From assembly GCA_964577565.1 (NCBI GenBank), contig CAZNZL010000001.1, positions 14,566 to 78,565 on the forward strand: DNA of 64,000 nt, written 5' to 3'. Below the pieces are notes generated by a model. That model worked only from the letters and a program-made list of their open reading frames with translations, searched no databases and was not told where the DNA came from. Source of the stretch: an uncultured Candidatus Saccharibacteria bacterium (GTDB lineage Bacteria; Patescibacteriota; Saccharimonadia; Saccharimonadales; JAGQNJ01). The translations under genes and the position numbers were made by a program. Shown piece by piece: positions 5,094 to 51,286 of the stretch (position 1 is its first letter; the number at the start of each line of letters is the position of its first letter).

Positions 5094-6179
5094 ATGTCTG
5101 AGAATACTGGCACTATTAACGCTCTGTTTGAGGAAATTACGAATGCGTATCAACGTCTTGATATAGCGACCCTTAAAGTGAAATTGGCAACATTAGAACG
5201 CGCAACCGAAGAGCAGTCTTTTTGGAATGATTCGCTGTCGGCGCAAGAGACAATGAAGCAAATCGCAGACCTTAGAGGCCGCGTGGAGCCTTGGGAGGAG
5301 CTGCGCCAGGCTATAGTTGAGCTGAAAGAACTAGATGGGCTGGGTGATGCAAGTTTGAATAATGAAATAGCAGCGCAACTTACGCAAATTACTAAGGAGT
5401 TTCAAGCGCGCAAGAGAGATTTATTGTTTTCGGGGCCGTATGATGACCATGGTGCTATACTGAGCATTCATGCCGGAGCGGGAGGAACTGATGCTCAGGA
5501 TTGGGCACAAATGCTGCTTCGAATGTACGTACGGTGGGCTGAAGCAGAAGGCGGCAGGCCAACTTTAGTAGACCAATCAGCGGGTGAAGAAGCAGGCATA
5601 AAGAGTGTCACGCTCCAGATTGATACTTCTTTAGCGTATGGCAAGCTAAAAAGTGAGCACGGAGTTCATCGTTTAGTTCGACTTAGTCCTTTTAATGCAG
5701 ACAATTTGCGGCAGACGAGTTTTGCCAAAGTAGATGTTTTGCCTAAAATTGACAGCCCTGACGAGGTTAAGCTTGAAGATAAAGATCTTAAAGTTGATGT
5801 TTATCGGGCGGGCGGGCACGGCGGTCAATCCGTGAACACTACTGATTCGGCTGTTCGGGTAACGCACATACCGACTGGCATTACCGTTAGTATTCAAAAC
5901 GAGCGCTCACAGCTACAAAATAAAGAGATGGCGCTAACTATCCTTCGTTCGCGGTTAGCCCAACTACAACTAGAGCAACACCAAAGCCACCTCAGTCAGC
6001 TAAAGGGACCAAACCAGTCAGCTGAGTGGGGCAACCAAATTAGAAGCTATGTCTTACACCCCTATAAACAAGTTAAGGATCTTCGTACGCGTTACGAGGT
6101 CTCAGATCCAGATGATGTTCTCAATGGTAACCTCAACGGTTTTATAAATGCTTATTTAAATCACACCATGCACAGTTAA
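5094..6179 (+). CDS. prfB: peptide chain release factor 2, encoded in one uninterrupted frame
   Basis: Contains the SPF tripeptide (RLSPFNA) that marks RF2 and the GGQ motif (GGHGGQSVNTTDSAVR). 361 aa with no internal in-frame stop or +1 frameshift site. Confidence 0.95.
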   Translation: MSENTGTINALFEEITNAYQRLDIATLKVKLATLERATEEQSFWNDSLSAQETMKQIADLRGRVEPWEELRQAIVELKELDGLGDASLNNEIAAQLTQITKEFQARKRDLLFSGPYDDHGAILSIHAGAGGTDAQDWAQMLLRMYVRWAEAEGGRPTLVDQSAGEEAGIKSVTLQIDTSLAYGKLKSEHGVHRLVRLSPFNADNLRQTSFAKVDVLPKIDSPDEVKLEDKDLKVDVYRAGGHGGQSVNTTDSAVRVTHIPTGITVSIQNERSQLQNKEMALTILRSRLAQLQLEQHQSHLSQLKGPNQSAEWGNQIRSYVLHPYKQVKDLRTRYEVSDPDDVLNGNLNGFINAYLNHTMHS

Positions 6180-6208
6180 TAGTAGCTTCTAAACCATTAT
6201 CAATTTGC

Positions 6209-6214
6209 TATAAT
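6209..6214 (+). promoter_or_regulatory. -10 box TATAAT (TGC-extended) 9 nt upstream of the ftsE ATG
   Basis: The sequence reads tttgcTATAATagaagctacATG. Confidence 0.5.
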
Positions 6215-6223
6215 AGAAGCTAC

Positions 6224-6904
6224 ATGATTCTGTTAGATAGGGTAAGTAAAGTCTACGGCAAAACAAATATTGCACTTGACCGGGCCAGTCTTCACGTTCA
6301 GCCCAAAGAGTTTGTGATTATTGTTGGTCCCAGTGGAGCTGGTAAATCAACCTTTCTTAAATTACTAACTCGTGAAGAGCGACCCACAAGCGGCAAAATT
6401 ATTGTGGGCGGCATTGATTATGACCATCTTAAAGATAAGAAAATTCCATTGCTAAGGCGCAAAATAGGAGTTGTCTTTCAAGACTTTAAACTTTTACCAA
6501 ATAAAAATGTGTTCGAAAACGTCGCCTTTGCGCTGGAGATTGTTGGCATGGGTAATAAAGAAATCCAGTATACAGTACCTCGTGTTTTAAACATTGTTGG
6601 CCTCAGTGGTAAAGAGAAGAACTACCCTAAAGAGCTATCTGGTGGTGAGCGACAACGCGTGGCAATTGCTCGTGCAATTGCACGACAACCAAAGATTTTA
6701 ATTGCCGACGAACCCACCGGTAACTTAGATCCAAAACACGCATGGGACGTCATAAAGGTACTTGAAAAAATTAACCGTTACGGCACAACAGTATTACTAA
6801 CAACGCACAACCAAGAAATAGTCAATAAGTTAAAGCGCCGTGTTATAACTATCAAGGCCGGTAAAGTTGTGAGCGATAGAGTTGGTGGGGAGTACAAAGC
6901 CTAA
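6224..6904 (+). CDS. ftsE: cell division ABC transporter ATP-binding protein FtsE
   Basis: Walker A (GPSGAGKST), ABC signature (LSGGERQR) and Walker B (ILIADEPTGNLD) are present. The gene is directly followed by ftsX with a TAATG overlap. Confidence 0.9.
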   Translation: MILLDRVSKVYGKTNIALDRASLHVQPKEFVIIVGPSGAGKSTFLKLLTREERPTSGKIIVGGIDYDHLKDKKIPLLRRKIGVVFQDFKLLPNKNVFENVAFALEIVGMGNKEIQYTVPRVLNIVGLSGKEKNYPKELSGGERQRVAIARAIARQPKILIADEPTGNLDPKHAWDVIKVLEKINRYGTTVLLTTHNQEIVNKLKRRVITIKAGKVVSDRVGGEYKA

Positions 6905-7848
6905 TGCGCCGAAAACTCATCACGATATCACGTATTTTTAAGAGCGGGCTTACTAATTTTATTCGTAATGCCTGGTTAACTGTAGCTGCTATTGCTGTCA
7001 TGGTTATTACGCTAACGATTGTTTTATTCTCTGTTATAGCAAATGCCACTTTTGCAAATACTATCCAGCAAATTACCGATAAGATTGATATATCGATTTA
7101 CCTTAAAGACGGTACCTCAGATGAAAGTAAAGATATGATTATCAATACATTAAACGACCTCAGTAACGTGAGAGAGATAGAATACTTGTCAAAAGAGCAA
7201 GCCAGAGATGAATTTATTGAAAACAATGAAGATGATGTTGATTTGCGTCTGTCTATTGCTCAGGCGGGCGAAAATCCTATACCGGCCACAATCCGCATTA
7301 AACCAGTTGATGTTAATAAGTTAGAAGAGCTTAACCAAGAGATTAACCAACAAAATTGGGGTGAGTTTATCTTGGAGATTTCTTACCAGAAAGATCGAAA
7401 AACAGCCATTGATAATATCGCTAGCGCAACAACGTTTTTCAGAAAAGCAGGGGTTATAGGGGTGGCGGTCTTTGCGCTTATCTCGATGCTGATTATATTT
7501 AACACCTTGCGAATGGCTATATTTAATCGCCGCGAAGAACTTAATATTATGCGTTTGCTTGGTGCTAGTACTTGGTATATTCGCGGTCCTTTTGTGGTAG
7601 AGACGGTGTTGTATGGCATTGTGGCGGCAATTATTTCAGTTGTATTGTGTAATGCATTGTTTGTCGTGTCGTCGTCTGCATTTGGTGCGAGCAGTCTTGG
7701 TCTTTTGGACTTAAAGTTTGCCAACGAGTATTTTGCGAAAAATTTCTGGAAAATTTTGGCTATACAACTGGCTATCGGTATACTAATTGGAGGCGTATCG
7801 TCTATTATTGCTACACGTCGATATCTAAAATTTAAGTCATCAAAATAA
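6904..7848 (+). CDS. ftsX: cell division permease-like protein FtsX
   Basis: 314 aa with an N-terminal TM helix, a large extracytoplasmic domain and three C-terminal TM helices. The start overlaps the ftsE stop. Confidence 0.85.
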   Translation: MRRKLITISRIFKSGLTNFIRNAWLTVAAIAVMVITLTIVLFSVIANATFANTIQQITDKIDISIYLKDGTSDESKDMIINTLNDLSNVREIEYLSKEQARDEFIENNEDDVDLRLSIAQAGENPIPATIRIKPVDVNKLEELNQEINQQNWGEFILEISYQKDRKTAIDNIASATTFFRKAGVIGVAVFALISMLIIFNTLRMAIFNRREELNIMRLLGASTWYIRGPFVVETVLYGIVAAIISVVLCNALFVVSSSAFGASSLGLLDLKFANEYFAKNFWKILAIQLAIGILIGGVSSIIATRRYLKFKSSK

Positions 7849-7891: not shown

Positions 7892-7966
7892 GCGGCCGCA
7901 AACACTTTACGCAGCTTGGAGGGTCATGATACAATGCTAACGGTTACATCAATAAAACAAACAGTT

Positions 7967-9091
7967 ATGTTGCAAACAAAAAAAGTACGCTTGAATATTT
8001 TTAGGGCTTCCAAAAAAGGCTTGCTTGGTTTGAGTGCGTTAATGGTTATTGGGGGCTCAGTAGCGGGCGTCAATATTACGCGCGCTCAGTCATTACAAGA
8101 TCAAATTAATGACTTACAACGACAAAATGCCGAAAACAAGAGTGCCGTCCAGAAATTACGAGAAGTAGCCACCAGTTATCAAAATGCGATTGAAATACTT
8201 GAGCACGACATTGCCGAGACCGAGAAAGCCATTCAGGTGAGTACGCAGCGCCAGGCGGAGCTTGAAAAAGCTATTGCAGAGGCTGAAGCCGAACTTGCCC
8301 GCCAACAAGATCTCCTCGGTAAAAACATCCGGGCTATGTATGTAGAAGGTGACATTTCAACTCTCGAAATGCTTGCCTCGAGTAACGATCTGAGTGAATT
8401 TGTTGACAAACAACAGTACCGTACCTCCGTAAAAAACAAAATAGTCAGTACCCTCGAGAAGATTAATGAGTTGAAGCACCAGCTTAAAACCCAAAAAGAA
8501 CAAGTAGAAATAGAGATTAAAGAACAAAACAATAGCCGAGCACAGCTAGCTGCTGCACGCAGCGAACAGGCAAGATTGTTGTCTATGAACCAATCAGAGC
8601 AAGCTGCTTTTACTGCTAAAACAAAAGCCAATGAAGCCAAAATTCGTGAACTGCAAGCTGCCCAACGAGCTTTGGCGCGAAGTATTGCGTCGGGTAACTT
8701 TGTTAGCCAAGGGCCCGTTAAGCAAGGCGATACGATTGGCCGCGTAGGTAATACGGGCTTTTCTACCGGCGCACATTTGCACTTTGAAGCGATAACGAGC
8801 GGGGGTCAGGATGTAAACCCCAATAACTACATAGGAAACGGCTGGATTCGACCCGTAGAGGGCGGTTATATTTCACAGGGTTACGGCGTAGCTAATAGCT
8901 GGTATATCAAAGGCTATCATACCGGTATAGACTATGCCGGGGTAACGGGAAGACCAGTTTTGGCAGCTGCGGATGGAGAAATCGTCTGGCGGGGCTGTAA
9001 GGGTTCATGCGGCGCGAGCTATGGTTACTATGTCTTAATTCGGCACAGTAACGGCATGTTTAGCCTGTACGCACACATGCAAATACCGTAA
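7967..9091 (+). CDS. coiled-coil M23 (LytM-type) peptidoglycan endopeptidase, EnvC-like architecture
   Basis: The C-terminal M23 motifs are intact (HTGIDYAG, GNTGFSTGAHLHFE). A long coiled coil sits between an N-terminal TM/signal segment and M23. The start is uncertain (7916, 7931 or 7967). I prefer 7967 because TGaTACAAT at 7927-7935 overlaps the earlier ATG. Confidence 0.8.
   Translation: MLQTKKVRLNIFRASKKGLLGLSALMVIGGSVAGVNITRAQSLQDQINDLQRQNAENKSAVQKLREVATSYQNAIEILEHDIAETEKAIQVSTQRQAELEKAIAEAEAELARQQDLLGKNIRAMYVEGDISTLEMLASSNDLSEFVDKQQYRTSVKNKIVSTLEKINELKHQLKTQKEQVEIEIKEQNNSRAQLAAARSEQARLLSMNQSEQAAFTAKTKANEAKIRELQAAQRALARSIASGNFVSQGPVKQGDTIGRVGNTGFSTGAHLHFEAITSGGQDVNPNNYIGNGWIRPVEGGYISQGYGVANSWYIKGYHTGIDYAGVTGRPVLAAADGEIVWRGCKGSCGASYGYYVLIRHSNGMFSLYAHMQIP
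8285..8484 (+). repeat. copy 1 of a 200-bp perfect direct repeat shared by the two hydrolase genes
   Basis: Base-for-base identical to 9422-9621 (offset 1137). It encodes EAELARQQDLLGKNIRAMYVEGDISTLEMLASSNDLSEFVDKQQYRTSVKNKIVSTLEKINELKHQL in both proteins. Confidence 0.95.
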
Positions 9092-9100
9092 GGTAAGTAT

Positions 9101-10255
9101 ATGATGAAACAAATAAACAAGTTTCCACAAAAAACTCATCGCCTATTTACGCGGGGCGCAAGTTTTGTGGGGGCGATGCTAATTGTGGCGTCATGTTTTA
9201 CGAGCCTGTACCAACTGCATGCTCAAACTATCCAGCAGCAAATTCAAGCCCTGCAACGTGAAAACCAACAAAATAGGAGCATCCTACAGCGTCTAAGCGA
9301 AGAAGCTACAAGCTATGAAGATGCTATTGAGCGTCTGCAATCAGAAATTGATGCTTTGCAGGCGCAAATCGATATTAACACCTCTGAGCAAGAACGCCTC
9401 AAACAAGAGATAGCAATTGTCGAAGCCGAACTTGCCCGCCAACAAGATCTCCTCGGTAAAAACATCCGGGCTATGTATGTAGAAGGTGACATTTCAACTC
9501 TCGAAATGCTTGCCTCGAGTAACGATCTGAGTGAATTTGTTGACAAACAACAGTACCGTACCTCCGTAAAAAACAAAATAGTCAGTACCCTCGAGAAGAT
9601 TAATGAGTTGAAGCACCAGCTCCGTGGTCAGAAAGAGCAAGTCGATAAACTACTGAAGCAGCAAACTGATCAGCGAGCCCTGCTTGCAAATAGCAAATTA
9701 GAGCAACGCAATCTTCTTTCTTATAATAGGGGGCAACAAGCAGAGTTTAATGCCAAAACAAGGAACAACCAAAATCGAATTGCTGAGCTCATTGCTGCTC
9801 AGCAGCGTGCTAATGACTCGGCGTCTGGGCTGCAATTCATTCGTATACCAGGCTCGGTTCAGCCGCATGATATAAATAGTGACGATTATCCTTATAAACA
9901 TTATGGGCATAGCCAGCTTGATGAGCCATGCCCCGGACCACCGCGAACAGCTGACTCGACAGATAGGTGGGGATATTGTACTCGACAATGCGTATCGTAC
10001 GTTGCTTGGGCAATTGAGCGCTCTGGCAGAACAGCACCGCGTGGTTGGGGAGATGCCAAGAACTGGGTGGTAATGGCGCCCTCAAGCTGGCTCGTCTTAA
10101 ACCCTATTCCGGGTGATATTGCTGTTATAACAGCTGGCACCTGGGGTCATGTTATGTATGTCGAACGTGTTGAGGGCAATAAAATGCTTGTTTCAGAGTA
10201 TAATCAACGGCTCGATGGCCGCTATCGTAACGATCGGTGGCTGACAATTCGTTAG
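9101..10255 (+). CDS. coiled-coil CHAP-domain peptidoglycan hydrolase, PcsB-like architecture
   Basis: N-terminal TM/signal segment, a coiled coil paralogous to the preceding gene, and a C-terminal CHAP domain with a Cys (CTRQCVSYVAWAI) and a His (GHVMYVERVEG). Confidence 0.8.
   Translation: MMKQINKFPQKTHRLFTRGASFVGAMLIVASCFTSLYQLHAQTIQQQIQALQRENQQNRSILQRLSEEATSYEDAIERLQSEIDALQAQIDINTSEQERLKQEIAIVEAELARQQDLLGKNIRAMYVEGDISTLEMLASSNDLSEFVDKQQYRTSVKNKIVSTLEKINELKHQLRGQKEQVDKLLKQQTDQRALLANSKLEQRNLLSYNRGQQAEFNAKTRNNQNRIAELIAAQQRANDSASGLQFIRIPGSVQPHDINSDDYPYKHYGHSQLDEPCPGPPRTADSTDRWGYCTRQCVSYVAWAIERSGRTAPRGWGDAKNWVVMAPSSWLVLNPIPGDIAVITAGTWGHVMYVERVEGNKMLVSEYNQRLDGRYRNDRWLTIR
9422..9621 (+). repeat. 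copy 2 of the 200-bp perfect direct repeat
   Basis: Identical to 8285-8484. The flanking sequence diverges immediately on both sides. Confidence 0.95.
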
Positions 10256-10302: not shown

Positions 10303-11520
10303 ATGGAGGAAAAAGAAAAAATCAGCACGTCCTTTAACAGGGCTCCAAAAAAGCAGCCTAAACTCACTAAAGTTATTGCAATAATTTCGGCTTTTGGACT
10401 GGTCTTTTTAGCTGGCATAGGGGTTGGTAACGGGCAAATATCATTTAGCGGGAACCAGTCGCGCCAAACTGCAGGCTTGCCACCAAATTTGTCGTATAGC
10501 TCTGTTGAAAAAGTCTACGACCTTCTTCGTAAGCAGTATGATGGTACGTTAGATGAAGCTAAGCTGCTCGATGGCTTGAAGAGTGGGCTGGTTGAAGCGG
10601 CAGGGGACCCGTATACAGAGTATTTGACCGCTGAGCAAGCTAGAGAGTTTGACGAGGAGCTAAACGGTACATTTAGCGGGATTGGTGCCGAGCTGGGCAA
10701 AGATGGCCAAAATATTGTAATTGTGGCCCCAATTAAGGGTTTTCCAGCAGAAAAGGCAGGCTTAAAGGCGCGTGACGTTGTTATTGAGATTAATGAAGAA
10801 ACCGCTCATGGTTTAAGCGTCAGTGAGGCGGTTCAAAAAATCCGTGGCGAAGCGGGCACGCAAGTAAAATTGAAAGTTTTGCGCAACAATAGTGAGACAC
10901 TTGATTTTACCATTACCAGAGATAACATTAGCATTCCGAGTGTCGAGTCTAGTATTGAGGGAGGAATCGGATATTTAAAAATCAGTCGCTTTTCTGACGA
11001 CACTGCCGCACTTTCGCGTCAAGCAGCAGAAAGTTTCAAACAAGCTGGGGTTAAGGCTGTTATTCTTGATGTTCGGGGTAATCCTGGCGGGTTGCTAGAT
11101 TCAGCAGTCAGCGTTTCGAGTTTATGGCTTACGGGCTCTCAAAAGGTATTAGAAGAAAAGCGCGACGGAATTGTTATAAAAACATATTACGCGCGAGACA
11201 ACCCGGTGCTCCAGCTTATACCAACAGTGGTAATGATTGATGGTGGTAGCGCAAGCGCAAGCGAAATTGTAGCGGGTGCACTAAAAGATAACGGCGCGGC
11301 TACACTTTTGGGTGATAAATCATTTGGTAAGGGGAGTGTGCAGTCTATTGAGCGCTTACCCGACGGGTCTGCGCTTAAGGTTACGATTGCTCGCTGGTTT
11401 ACGCCAAAGGGGCGCAATATTGATAAAGAAGGCATCGAGCCAGATAAAAAAGTTGAACAAACAAATAGTTCAATTTCTGACGTTCAATTGGATGCCGCAA
11501 AGCGTGAGCTACAAAAATAA
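10303..11520 (+). CDS. ctpA: S41 family C-terminal processing peptidase with PDZ domain
   Basis: N-terminal TM, a PDZ region (GIGAELGKDGQNIVIVAPIKGFPAEKAGLKARDVVIEIN), and S41 motifs (DVRGNPGGLLDSAV, GGSASASEIVAGALKD, FGKGSVQ). Confidence 0.9.
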   Translation: MEEKEKISTSFNRAPKKQPKLTKVIAIISAFGLVFLAGIGVGNGQISFSGNQSRQTAGLPPNLSYSSVEKVYDLLRKQYDGTLDEAKLLDGLKSGLVEAAGDPYTEYLTAEQAREFDEELNGTFSGIGAELGKDGQNIVIVAPIKGFPAEKAGLKARDVVIEINEETAHGLSVSEAVQKIRGEAGTQVKLKVLRNNSETLDFTITRDNISIPSVESSIEGGIGYLKISRFSDDTAALSRQAAESFKQAGVKAVILDVRGNPGGLLDSAVSVSSLWLTGSQKVLEEKRDGIVIKTYYARDNPVLQLIPTVVMIDGGSASASEIVAGALKDNGAATLLGDKSFGKGSVQSIERLPDGSALKVTIARWFTPKGRNIDKEGIEPDKKVEQTNSSISDVQLDAAKRELQK

Positions 11521-11586: not shown

Positions 11587-13227
11587 GTGGCGCTGAGCAA
11601 ACAGCGAACTAAGTATATTTTTGTAACAGGTGGTGTGCTTTCTGGACTTGGGAAGGGTATTTCTGCCGCCTCAATTGGTAATCTGCTAAAAGCACGCGGG
11701 CTTACCGTAAATATCCAAAAATGCGACCCATATCTTAATGTTGATGCCGGGCTGTTAAACCCACGTGAGCATGGGGAATGCTTTGTAACCCATGATGGCG
11801 CAGAAACAGATCTGGACCTTGGTCATTACGAGCGTTTTCTTGACCAAGAAATTGACAGCGCAAGTTCGTTAATGAGCGGGCGAGTTTTACTGAAAGTCAT
11901 TCAAGACGAACGGGCTGGCAAATATGAAGGAGATGACGTTCAGATTATTCCTCATTTTACCTCGGCTATTCAGCGGTTTATTACTGATGCGGCCAAAGGC
12001 TACGATGTTCATATCGTTGAAATTGGTGGAACCGTCGGCGACTATGAATCGCTTAGTTTTATTGAGGCAATTCGCGAGCTCGGCATTAATGTTGGCCTTG
12101 AAAATTGTCTATACGTGCACGTAGTTTATCTGCCATATTTAGGTGCAAGCCAAGAGACAAAAACAAAACCTGCCCAAAATTCAGTGAGAGAACTTCGGGG
12201 CCTCGGAATCACACCTGATATTCTTATTGCCAGAAGCGAGCGGCCAGCTAATGCAGGCGTAAAAAATAAACTAAGCTTATTTTCGGGCGTTTCTAACGAT
12301 GCCATAGCGTTATTACCTAATGCTTCGACTATTTATCAGGTTCCATTAACGCTTGAAGACACTGATATCGCCGATGTAATTACTAAAAAATTACATCTAA
12401 AAACCAAGAAGCCAGATCTTAAGCAATGGCGACAGGTGGTTAAAAAGGCAACGACAAATCATAAACGTAAACTTACGGTTGGCTTGGTTGCAAAGTATAT
12501 GGATAATACCGATACCTATATTTCAGTTTTTGAAGCGTTGCGTGCAGCCTCATGGTTTACCGATACAAAACTTAAAATTAAATGGATAGACGCAGAAAAG
12601 CTAAAGAAAACCCGCGATGTTGAGCGAGCGTTTAAGGACGTAAGCGGCATCGTGGTGCCTGGTGGTTTTGGCACGCGTGGGCTCGAAGGCAAGATCTTAG
12701 CCGCTCGGTATGCCCTTAGTAATAAAATTCCGTACCTGGGGTTGTGTTTAGGTATGCAGATGGCAGTCATTGCAGCGGCCCGTAACGCTGGTTATAAAAA
12801 AGCCACAACGATAGAGTTAGACCCAAAAAGTGATATGCGCGTGATTGATATTATGGGTGATCAGATCGGTAAAGAAAGTACTGGTGGCACTATGCGGCTC
12901 GGTGATTACCCATGCAAGCTAGAAAAGGGCAGTGTGGCAGCCAAGCTTTATAAAGCAGATGCGATTGTAGAACGGCATCGGCACCGCTGCGAGGCTAATA
13001 ACGCCTATCGCGATCAATACTCAGCATGGGGTATTAAAGCATCGGGTACATCACCTGACGGTACGTTAGTAGAGATAATCGAAGCAACCGATCATCCATT
13101 TTTTGTTGCCAGTCAGTTTCATCCTGAGTTTAAATCACGTCCGCATAAGCCACATCCACTCTTTGGTGGTTTTGTGAAGGCTTGTGCAGACCGCCCAAGT
13201 ATTGCGACAACCAACAAAGTAGGGTAG
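11587..13227 (+). CDS. pyrG: CTP synthase
   Basis: 546 aa with a GTG start preceded by GGGGGA. The N-terminus is the canonical KYIFVTGGVLSGLGKGI. The C-terminal glutamine amidotransferase domain carries LGLCLGMQ and a HRHRCE segment. Confidence 0.95.
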   Translation: MALSKQRTKYIFVTGGVLSGLGKGISAASIGNLLKARGLTVNIQKCDPYLNVDAGLLNPREHGECFVTHDGAETDLDLGHYERFLDQEIDSASSLMSGRVLLKVIQDERAGKYEGDDVQIIPHFTSAIQRFITDAAKGYDVHIVEIGGTVGDYESLSFIEAIRELGINVGLENCLYVHVVYLPYLGASQETKTKPAQNSVRELRGLGITPDILIARSERPANAGVKNKLSLFSGVSNDAIALLPNASTIYQVPLTLEDTDIADVITKKLHLKTKKPDLKQWRQVVKKATTNHKRKLTVGLVAKYMDNTDTYISVFEALRAASWFTDTKLKIKWIDAEKLKKTRDVERAFKDVSGIVVPGGFGTRGLEGKILAARYALSNKIPYLGLCLGMQMAVIAAARNAGYKKATTIELDPKSDMRVIDIMGDQIGKESTGGTMRLGDYPCKLEKGSVAAKLYKADAIVERHRHRCEANNAYRDQYSAWGIKASGTSPDGTLVEIIEATDHPFFVASQFHPEFKSRPHKPHPLFGGFVKACADRPSIATTNKVG

Positions 13228-49920: not shown

Positions 49921-50523
49921 TTATTTTGTTGGCGCGGTAGGTGCGGAAGAAGGTTGTATTGATGCATGTGCAACGTAGACCCGAGATGATTGCTGGGTAG
50001 TCCATACAGCGAGACTTGTTACATGAAGCCCTCCCCGAGAAACATAATATGGTCGACCACAGATTGTTTGGTAAGTCTTGCCGCTTCCATTCAGGGATTG
50101 ATTTCTATATCCATCTCGGGCTGTTCCTGTTGTAACACCAAGGGTAAATTTACTCGTTGAACTAACTCCCCTTGCCTTTACACAGATGCGAAAATAGCCA
50201 CCACCATCCATGACAACCTCCTTATCTCTACTTACTGATCCACCGGGTTCAATCGCGATAACGTTTTTGTTAGCTTTGTCAGTGTCAGCAGTATTGTCTA
50301 TAACAATGGAGGATCCGGTGCTAATTCTAGCATTACTAGCATTTAATATATGATAGGTAGTAGCGGCAAAACTCCTATACGTAAACCAACCACCACCCAT
50401 GACTGCTACAAGCAATATGACGGCAATAAAGCGGTTTCTTGATGAATTTAGGTTAATTTTGCCGAAAAGACTTATTTTATTCGCACTGCTGGTGCGTTTA
50501 GTTGATTTGGTCGTTTTTGCCAT
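49921..50523 (-). CDS. hypothetical membrane-anchored secreted protein (paralog 1)
   Basis: The basic N-terminus plus TM helix (RFIAVILLVAVMGGGWFTYRSFAAT) is nearly identical to that of the next gene. The ectodomain is divergent and beta-rich. Confidence 0.5.
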   Translation of the reverse strand: MAKTTKSTKRTSSANKISLFGKINLNSSRNRFIAVILLVAVMGGGWFTYRSFAATTYHILNASNARISTGSSIVIDNTADTDKANKNVIAIEPGGSVSRDKEVVMDGGGYFRICVKARGVSSTSKFTLGVTTGTARDGYRNQSLNGSGKTYQTICGRPYYVSRGGLHVTSLAVWTTQQSSRVYVAHASIQPSSAPTAPTK

Positions 50524-50558
50524 TGTTTGTCCTTTCTGGTTCTATGGGTCTATGCTTA

Positions 50559-51155
50559 CTATTTGACTGGTGTAGATGGAGCGGGTTTGCTATCTGTTTT
50601 AACAAAAATTTTTGCTACGTAGACATTGACACTAGTTGGGTTGCTTACAGAAAGAACGCCACCTGTTAATGCCGAACCGAATGGTCCTTGATTGTCACCA
50701 CATACATCAGTCCAACCCGTAGTTGCTTTAATATCCCATACTCCACCTCTATTTGTGAAGCCAATACCTGCGTTAATCGTAACGGCTTTATCTGCGCGTA
50801 CGGTGGCACAGTACTGTAGGGTCGCATTTCCTGGAATCGTAAGACTTTTTGTATAAGCCTCACCGCCTTTAGCTAGCCTATACATCGGCATGTTATTTTT
50901 ATTCGAATCTGTGGCATTAAATGCATTAACTCCTAATGTTTTGGCGTTCAAACAGTTGGAAGGTGTACATTGAACGTATATATTTGTAGGTGTTGCGGCA
51001 AAACTCCTATAGGTAAACCACCCACCACCCATGACTGCTACAAGCAATATTGCTGCGACGAAGCGCGTCTTTGGGGAGCTTAAATTGATTTTACTGAAAA
51101 TGCCTTTTCTCTTCGCACTAGTCGTACGTTTAGTTGTTTTGCTGGTTTTTGCCAT
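50559..51155 (-). CDS. hypothetical membrane-anchored secreted protein (paralog 2)
   Basis: It shares MAKT.K.TKRT.SA... and LLVAVMGGGWFTYRSFAAT with 49921-50523. The C-terminal end is similar (VYVA...P.S.P..P.K). Confidence 0.5.
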   Translation of the reverse strand: MAKTSKTTKRTTSAKRKGIFSKINLSSPKTRFVAAILLVAVMGGGWFTYRSFAATPTNIYVQCTPSNCLNAKTLGVNAFNATDSNKNNMPMYRLAKGGEAYTKSLTIPGNATLQYCATVRADKAVTINAGIGFTNRGGVWDIKATTGWTDVCGDNQGPFGSALTGGVLSVSNPTSVNVYVAKIFVKTDSKPAPSTPVK

Positions 51156-51286
51156 GGTATTCCTTTTTATGTTTGGTTATTTATAAGCATAAGGGTAATG
51201 GATAGCGGTTAGTTTGTCAAATGCCTGTATGCATCGTTTAGCAAATCTTACAATGGTACGCTATATATAGCGTATATACACCATAT

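Follow-up and report, generated by a model that had tools for sequence, protein, structure and literature searches.

Gene conversion at the putative FtsX-docking tip of two tandem cell wall hydrolases encoded behind one FtsEX in Saccharibacteria

Two adjacent genes of an uncultured Candidatus Saccharibacteria bacterium, located directly behind ftsE and ftsX in a 64-kb stretch of contig CAZNZL010000001.1 (the whole stretch analyzed, hereafter the window), share 200 nucleotides (nt) base for base in the middle of coding sequences that have otherwise diverged to saturation. Both genes, g1 (7934 to 9091) and g2 (9101 to 10255), lie on the plus strand and code for membrane-anchored coiled-coil hairpins, followed in g1 by a circularly permuted M23 metallopeptidase domain (an open reading frame [ORF] with Pfam M23 in two stretches) and in g2 by a CHAP domain (ORF; Pfam CHAP, E = 8e-14). 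Why should two enzymes with different catalytic ends be identical in one internal segment, and in that segment only? The answer that we favor, with a probability of roughly 75%, is that gene conversion is confined to the tip by which the two hydrolases, both encoded behind a single FtsEX, would dock onto FtsX.

Direct comparison gives one exact 200-nt run between 8285 and 8484 (copy 1, plus strand, in g1) and between 9422 and 9621 (copy 2, plus strand, in g2). The offset of 1137 nt is a whole number of codons (379). Both copies thus lie in frame and share one sequence of 67 codons, EAELARQQDLLGKNIRAMYVEGDISTLEMLASSNDLSEFVDKQQYRTSVKNKIVSTLEKINELKHQL, at amino acids (aa) 107 to 173 of g1 (counted from the ATG at 7967) and 108 to 174 of g2. 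Outside the run the similarity is lost at once. The adjoining 30-nt windows are 40 to 57% identical, and the coiled-coil codons on the two sides of the block are 52% and 51% identical between g1 and g2, with only 33% at third positions. At the protein level the two coiled coils have 54% identity over 247 aa, which becomes 37% (67/180) when the 67 identical residues are left aside, and the catalytic domains are unrelated, Peptidase_M23 in g1 and CHAP in g2 by Pfam. An earlier note on this DNA, made from the letters alone, had described the same picture, i.e., base-for-base identity at offset 1137 within the same coiled-coil segment of both genes, an abrupt end of this identity on both sides, flanking coiled coils about 40% similar as proteins and unrelated catalytic domains, and on each of these points our measurements agree with it. 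The block is the only long perfect repeat in the window. With the identity of this segment in relatives that have no recent conversion (70 to 78%) as the starting point, a run of 200 nt has a probability of ca. 1e-19 to 1e-28, and chance is therefore excluded as an explanation.

How the identity arose can be read from the closest relative (L001), a different species recovered in a different assembly, with aa identities to the window of 87% (g1) and 80% (g2). This genome has a perfect block of its own, 204 nt long (6180 to 6383, identical to 7319 to 7522), and a four-way codon alignment places the tract boundaries of the two species 3 nt (one codon) apart on the left and 1 nt apart on the right. 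Within either genome the two block copies are 100% identical, and between the two species the blocks are 77% identical, which is not the equal conservation across species that the earlier note had named beforehand as the outcome speaking against conversion. The interspecies differences affect 45 of 201 positions, ca. 35 of them synonymous and ca. 10 nonsynonymous, with six amino acid changes, and every single one is found in both paralogs of its genome. In the flanks, the nucleotide identity is 73 to 84% between orthologs and ca. 52% between paralogs of these two genomes. The Nei-Gojobori proportions of synonymous (pS) and nonsynonymous (pN) difference follow the same pattern. In the block, the paralogs have a pS of 0.02 (window) and 0 (L001), versus 0.80 for the orthologs of the two species, and in the flanks the paralogs reach a pS of ca. 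0.85 and a pN of ca. 0.4. Neighbor-joining trees (200 codon bootstraps) were made separately for the block and for both flanks. In the block trees, the paralogs are sisters in 100% of the replicates for the window, L001, and two other loci, L031 and L035. In the flank trees they are sisters in 0% for every genome with an M23 plus CHAP pair except L035, an exception that appears because the longer L035 tract reaches into both flank segments. A block that groups by genome between flanks that group by ortholog is, as far as these alignments go, the classic signature of concerted evolution, and we consider it strongly supported that the 200-nt block is an interlocus gene conversion tract (non-reciprocal homologous recombination) between g1 and g2. 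The few diagnostic sites within the block are g2-like at both ends and g1-like around DISTL, a weak hint at several conversion events in both directions and a mosaic origin of the block.

Identity could also be maintained with no recombination at all, by purifying selection on the protein or by a DNA or RNA element that lies within g1 and g2 alike. Across the family, no other part of the coiled coil is indeed as conserved as the block, which has a pN of 0.065 between the window and L001, and many of the invariant residues in our homolog alignments of g2 (A1) and g1 (A2) fall within it. However, ca. 43 synonymous sites are all identical within each genome while ca. 80% of them differ between the species, and at the DNA level the block is not conserved across relatives. 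Since purifying selection cannot hold synonymous sites identical, this explanation is effectively refuted and we assign it next to no probability. An embedded RNA or DNA element was looked for and rejected, with no Rfam match at E <= 1 and an RNA fold no better than that of shuffled sequences (z = -0.9).

An assembly artefact, in which two similar segments collapse into one consensus during metagenome assembly or polishing, has to be considered too, given that all the sequences are metagenome assembled and that the identity is read from assemblies alone. In the protein collection, the proteins of the window have a single occurrence, with no encoding contig recorded for them. Artefacts do occur in related metagenome-assembled genomes (MAGs), such as 55-nt repeats in three loci (L007, L022 and L046) and a gap of Ns in a fourth (L010). 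Against a collapse, the independent L001 assembly also has a perfect block, whose edges match those of the window to about one codon and whose sequence is only 77% identical, and L035 retains 6 mismatches in 432 nt, which indicates that its copies were assembled separately. Both reading frames are intact. Besides, a collapse requires copies that are already nearly identical, in itself a sign of conversion, and in unconverted relatives they are 63 to 75% identical. Altogether, an artefact seems very improbable.

The comparison was extended to 58 related loci from species-representative genomes, all Saccharibacteria or Patescibacteria MAGs save two, one labelled "bacterium" and one Burkholderiaceae (probably a mis-binned contig). 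L035 carries a tract of 432 nt with 98.6% identity (the 6 mismatches referred to above) and sharp edges; L031, with a pair of CHAP hydrolases, has an exact run of 81 nt; and L004 has an exact run of 49 nt within a segment of 78% identity. The boundaries of these three tracts differ from those of the window and L001, and all of them span the codons equivalent to g2 aa 137 to 154. The sequences strongly support that conversion has recurred in the lineage of the window and, elsewhere in Saccharibacteria, in two or more further lineages (L035 and L031, and probably L004 as a third). The recent or recurrent conversion of one internal segment that the earlier note had proposed is thus borne out, both by the block grouping with its genome while the flanks group with their orthologs and by the tracts in further lineages. 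It should be noted that 12 of the 17 genomes with paired hydrolases that were examined have no recent tract, with identities of 63 to 75% in the block and 38 to 59% in the flanks. A metagenome scan with g1 recovered only distant relatives (<=49% identity), none of them with a repeated block.

What is this segment in the proteins? AlphaFold models, single chains obtained from the homolog alignments A1 (g2) and A2 (g1), have a common layout. A membrane helix at the N terminus is followed by the long helix I, a short loop that includes a small helix, the long helix II and the catalytic domain. In the g2 model (mean predicted local distance difference test score [pLDDT], 82) the transmembrane helix is at aa 13 to 33, helix I at 44 to 126, the lip or loop at 127 to 148, helix II at 149 to 239 and CHAP at 244 to 384. 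In the g1 model (numbered from the ATG at 7967; mean pLDDT, 79), helix I covers aa 43 to 125 and helix II aa 148 to 242, and the M23 domain has a pLDDT of ca. 90. The block takes in 19 residues at the end of helix I, all of the loop (the "lip") and 26 residues at the start of helix II, that is, in both models it is the tip of the hairpin. Foldseek gave 4cgk, 8tzl_E, 8idc_E and 6tpi as the top matches of the two models. For g2, the best structures were PcsB (4cgk), Vibrio cholerae EnvC (8tzl_E) and Mycobacterium tuberculosis RipC (8idc_E), the last two in FtsEX complexes, and for g1 it was the V. cholerae EnvC of the FtsEX complex (8tzl_E). A profile of A1 searched against the PDB retrieved EnvC of V. 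cholerae (8tzk_E, E = 5e-7), EnvC of Escherichia coli (8hd0_E, E = 1e-6) and PcsB (4cgk_A, E = 1.5e-5). Its alignments to EnvC extend over the coiled coil, and residue I122 of g2 pairs with L121 of EnvC (8hd0_E).

These relatives suggest a role for the tip. In the crystal structure of E. coli EnvC with FtsX, the interfaces with FtsX are EnvC residues 114 to 128, at the end of helix I, and 141 to 160, at the start of helix II, and the equivalent sites of PcsB have been predicted at 101 to 114 and 130 to 148 (PMC7668044). In RipC, too, the parts touching FtsX are where helix 1 ends, the "lip" and where helix 2 begins (PMC10694151). Transferred by the profile alignment, the EnvC interfaces fall at g2 aa ~115 to 129 and 142 to 154, both inside the block. 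Homology and models together support the block being the FtsX-docking tip of both hydrolases, and the idea of the earlier note that this is the part predicted to bind FtsX holds up, with the hairpin tip in both models and the two EnvC contact segments mapping inside it by homology. As in EnvC, RipC and PcsB, the tip would be the module used for docking, held by both extracellular domains of an FtsX dimer. One FtsEX could then engage either hydrolase through the same tip surface, and its movement, powered by ATP, would relieve the autoinhibition of each catalytic domain.

The tip might instead be a shared interface for another partner, either for the heterodimerization of the g1 and g2 products or for a common cofactor like SweC/SweD. 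The FtsEX-CwlO system of Bacillus subtilis is reported to need extra cofactors (PMC6705773); here, the contact of FtsX with the tip is predicted from homology, and the loop is modelled at low confidence (pLDDT of <50 at g2 aa 130 to 134). Yet the two segments by which EnvC contacts FtsX fall within the block, the contacts of RipC and those predicted for PcsB are topologically the same, and in the whole clade the hydrolase genes come right after ftsEX. Another partner is, in our view, clearly unlikely.

If the block is the docking tip, why does conversion stop at its edges? Among the 12 genomes without recent conversion, the aa identity between paralogs is 72% in the block and 40 to 44% in the flanks, and it exceeds 80% across g2 aa 121 to 160. 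The tip alone is conserved enough between the paralogs to recombine, so its homogenization could be a tolerated by-product. In the scenario that we prefer, the shared partner FtsX would constrain both tips and keep that segment alone similar enough to recombine; the homology of the tips would permit RecA-type conversion between direct repeats 1.1 kb apart; and the homogenized 200 nt would in turn sustain further conversion. A homogenized tip would be tolerated, and possibly favored, because both proteins must fit the same partner.

Alternatively, the identity of the tip might itself be selected, with conversion carrying any change of the docking surface into both hydrolases at the same time, keeping them matched to a co-evolving FtsX and balancing their competition for the single FtsEX. 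Several observations are in line with this possibility. The boundaries of the window and L001 coincide within 3 nt and 1 nt despite saturated synonymous divergence, the six tip residues that differ between these species have changed in both paralogs, conversion recurs in M23 plus CHAP as well as in CHAP plus CHAP lineages and always across the same loop, and in prokaryotes, members of stable protein complexes are overrepresented among the genes with long-lasting concerted evolution (PMC6053082). However, the 12 of 17 paired-hydrolase genomes without recent conversion keep paralog-specific tip residues, and recombination that depends on homology would, even with no selection, be confined to the sole conserved segment. 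FtsX offers little help to the adaptive explanation either. Its 314 aa have 33 differences between the window and L001, only one of them within aa 97 to 145 (the putative X-lobe), with six residues differing in the tip, and the comparison of these two genomes gave no co-variation signal for or against co-evolution of FtsX and tip. We regard selection for identity as plausible but rather unlikely, and a homology-driven by-product accounts for the data at least as well. The hypothesis of the earlier note, in which the identity of the block is preserved to let one FtsEX drive two different hydrolases, stands in part. Its docking tip is supported as a prediction; its selection for identity is conjectural, considering the tip as the only segment fit to recombine, the 12 of 17 genomes without recent conversion and the nearly unchanged putative X-lobe. 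A bolder version, in which the identical tip is a selected "common plug" and a single FtsEX motor alternately docks the M23 endopeptidase and the CHAP hydrolase, is tentative, and we would put it well below even odds. If it were true, recurrent conversion would let the docking surface evolve in step in both enzymes, and the sharp, repeated boundaries would mark the minimal FtsX-docking module at roughly codon resolution.

Conversion confined to an FtsX-docking tip that is shared by two hydrolases behind one FtsEX is the interpretation that we retain, and some points weigh against it in addition to the metagenomic origin of all the sequences mentioned above. That the tip binds FtsX is itself a prediction from homology, and the single-sequence match to Pfam CC_PcsB (22.1 bits) is below the gathering score of 27. 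A tblastn search found no second ftsX copy in the window, and no third coiled-coil paralog is present in it; this count covers 64 kb of the genome, and a second ftsEX elsewhere is possible. Finally, the left boundaries of the window and L001 differ by 3 nt and the right ones by 1 nt, with synonymous sites saturated between the two species, a closer match than simple erosion of a neutral tract might leave. This tight coincidence leans toward some selection on the boundaries or on the identity, which is possible and is not required.

The genes around the tandem pair fit a conserved neighborhood. Like g1 and g2, the ftsE, ftsX and ctpA-like genes are on the plus strand. The ORF of prfB (5094 to 6179) precedes ftsE (6224 to 6904), coding for the ABC ATPase of the FtsEX complex (Pfam ABC_tran, E = 4e-37), with a product 77 to 96% identical in aa to that of the syntenic gene in relatives. 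It is followed by ftsX (6904 to 7848), coding for the membrane component with its extracellular domain (Pfam FtsX_ECD at aa 62 to 150 and FtsX at aa 186 to 309). From the end of ftsX to the start of g1 there are 86 nt, and from the end of g1 to the start of g2 there are 10 nt. The ORF of g1 opens with a TTG at 7916 and the public protein P0121, 100% identical to the g1 product over 385 aa, begins at the ATG at 7934. The CHAP assignment of g2 is based on 52.4 bits in Pfam versus a cut-off of 26, residues C297 and H350 invariant in alignment A1, and CHAP structures in the PDB as matches (2k3a and 2lrj). The genes g1 and g2 are old tandem paralogs, one ending in M23 and the other in CHAP. Downstream, there is a ctpA-like gene coding for an S41 carboxy-terminal protease with a PDZ domain (10303 to 11520; Pfam Peptidase_S41, E = 7e-51, plus PDZ), and then the ORF of pyrG (11587 to 13227). 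The order prfB-ftsE-ftsX-hydrolase(s)-ctpA-pyrG is conserved in relatives, and the hydrolase genes come directly after ftsEX in all close relatives. The ctpA-like S41/PDZ gene is always the next one after the FtsEX-linked hydrolases in relatives. Proteases of the CtpA type degrade cell wall hydrolases in some bacteria, and by analogy this one may regulate g1 and g2.

The complement of hydrolases after ftsEX varies among the loci. M23 plus CHAP is found in the window, L001 to L004, L013, L035, L084, L086, L090, L092, L094 and L097; CHAP plus CHAP in L009, L014, L018, L031 and L087; and an apparently single CHAP in L005, L006 and L027. The last of these loci has two ftsE-ftsX copies (744 to 2156 and 5420 to 6831; 81.8% nt identity over 1414 nt) and a single CHAP hydrolase, the reverse of the arrangement in the window, where one FtsEX precedes two hydrolases. 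A direct repeat of 200 nt at 1.1 kb may also mediate deletion or duplication. Among the loci with one detected coiled-coil gene, we found no clear case of a deletion chimera (g1-like upstream flank and g2-like downstream flank), with a filter for single genes that was over-strict. An apparently truncated g2 in L010 was rejected, as a scaffold gap of ~100 Ns (about 6902 to 7000) lies inside the coiled coil of its CHAP gene. Helix I and half of the tip are lost in the gap. The right half of the block can be read and differs between g1 and g2, for which reason L010 was not counted as evidence of conversion.

The M23 domain of g1 (window 8711 to 9088) has an unusual topology. The segment with G-x-T-G and H-L-H precedes the one with H-x-x-x-D and Y-A-H-M, where the protein ends; in alignment A2, HLH is at positions 270 to 272 and HxxxD at 318 to 322, which is not the canonical order of M23 motifs. 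The metal and catalytic residues are invariant in the 73 homologs of A2. In its native order the domain gives two partial Pfam stretches, and re-joined in the canonical order it gives one match of 89.3 bits over profile positions 2 to 96 of 96. By these sequence criteria, g1 is an M23 homolog with a circular permutation, which is shared by the orthologs of L001, L003, L004, L013 and L035. A limited literature search found no paper pairing circular permutation with M23 or LytM. The LytM domain of EnvC is degenerate. In contrast to EnvC, the M23 domain of g1 keeps all the metal and catalytic residues and is circularly permuted.

Other repeats were seen in this material. On the minus strand of the window there are two tandem small ORFs (49921 to 50523 and 50559 to 51155; 200 and 198 aa) with a direct repeat of 176 nt (50360 to 50535 and 50992 to 51167) that is 77% identical. 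It spans the N-terminal leader and the membrane segment (MAKT.K.TKRT...ILLVAVMGGGWFTYRSFAAT), and the C-terminal parts have diverged. The 55-nt repeats of the related MAGs are exact and direct, with a constant spacing of 155 nt and sequences that are unrelated from locus to locus. They are located at 6166 to 6220 and 6321 to 6375 in L007; at 224 to 278 and 379 to 433, and again at 2111 to 2165 and 2266 to 2320, in L022; and at 2315 to 2369 and 2470 to 2524 in L046. No tRNA was found at the repeat of L007, the only one of the three loci scanned. They look like assembly artefacts of k-mer size, and the assemblies of the relatives are imperfect.

How does this locus compare with known systems? 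Like EnvC (E. coli, V. cholerae and Pseudomonas aeruginosa), PcsB (Streptococcus pneumoniae), RipC (M. tuberculosis) and CwlO (B. subtilis), the g1 and g2 products have an anchor, an antiparallel hairpin and a C-terminal domain, which in this class is M23/LytM, CHAP or NlpC/P60, and they share with these proteins the coiled-coil homology, the linkage to ftsEX and the best structural matches. By architecture, homology and linkage, both fit the class, and their role as FtsEX partners is predicted from sequence and models. The difference is that here there are two partners with different catalytic domains and an identical tip behind one ftsEX, whereas a review describes one coiled-coil partner for each FtsEX system (PMC11627006). 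Concerted evolution of bacterial paralogs is also known, with tufA/tufB and the 26 genes of Wang and Chen (2018) as examples, in an article that has no mention of the word "hydrolase" (PMC6053082). As in those cases, the paralogs are closer within a genome than the orthologs are between genomes, the phenomenon recurs across lineages, and members of protein complexes are involved. Unlike them, only an internal module of 200 nt is homogenized here, 67 of ~385 codons, and the remainder has diverged to saturation, with unrelated catalytic ends. A further parallel may be mammalian TLR1/TLR6, tandem paralogs with a common interaction partner; conversion is reported to hold back their divergence in one region and the others specialize, although these are eukaryotic receptors and not bacterial hydrolases (PMC2077338). 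In a limited literature search, no paper on an arrangement like this in Saccharibacteria was found. Gene conversion and the protein family are both known, and it is the restriction of homogenization to an interface module that differs from the known cases.

The moment at which bacteria cleave their own wall is under the control of FtsEX systems. For Saccharibacteria, in a phylum where experimental tools are scarce, the locus suggests a single FtsEX at the service of two enzymes, probably with different bond specificities. The conversion tract provides an independent pointer, obtained from sequence only, to the putative docking module (g2 aa 108 to 174), and the pair represents a very clean bacterial case of concerted evolution confined to one module in otherwise saturated paralogs.

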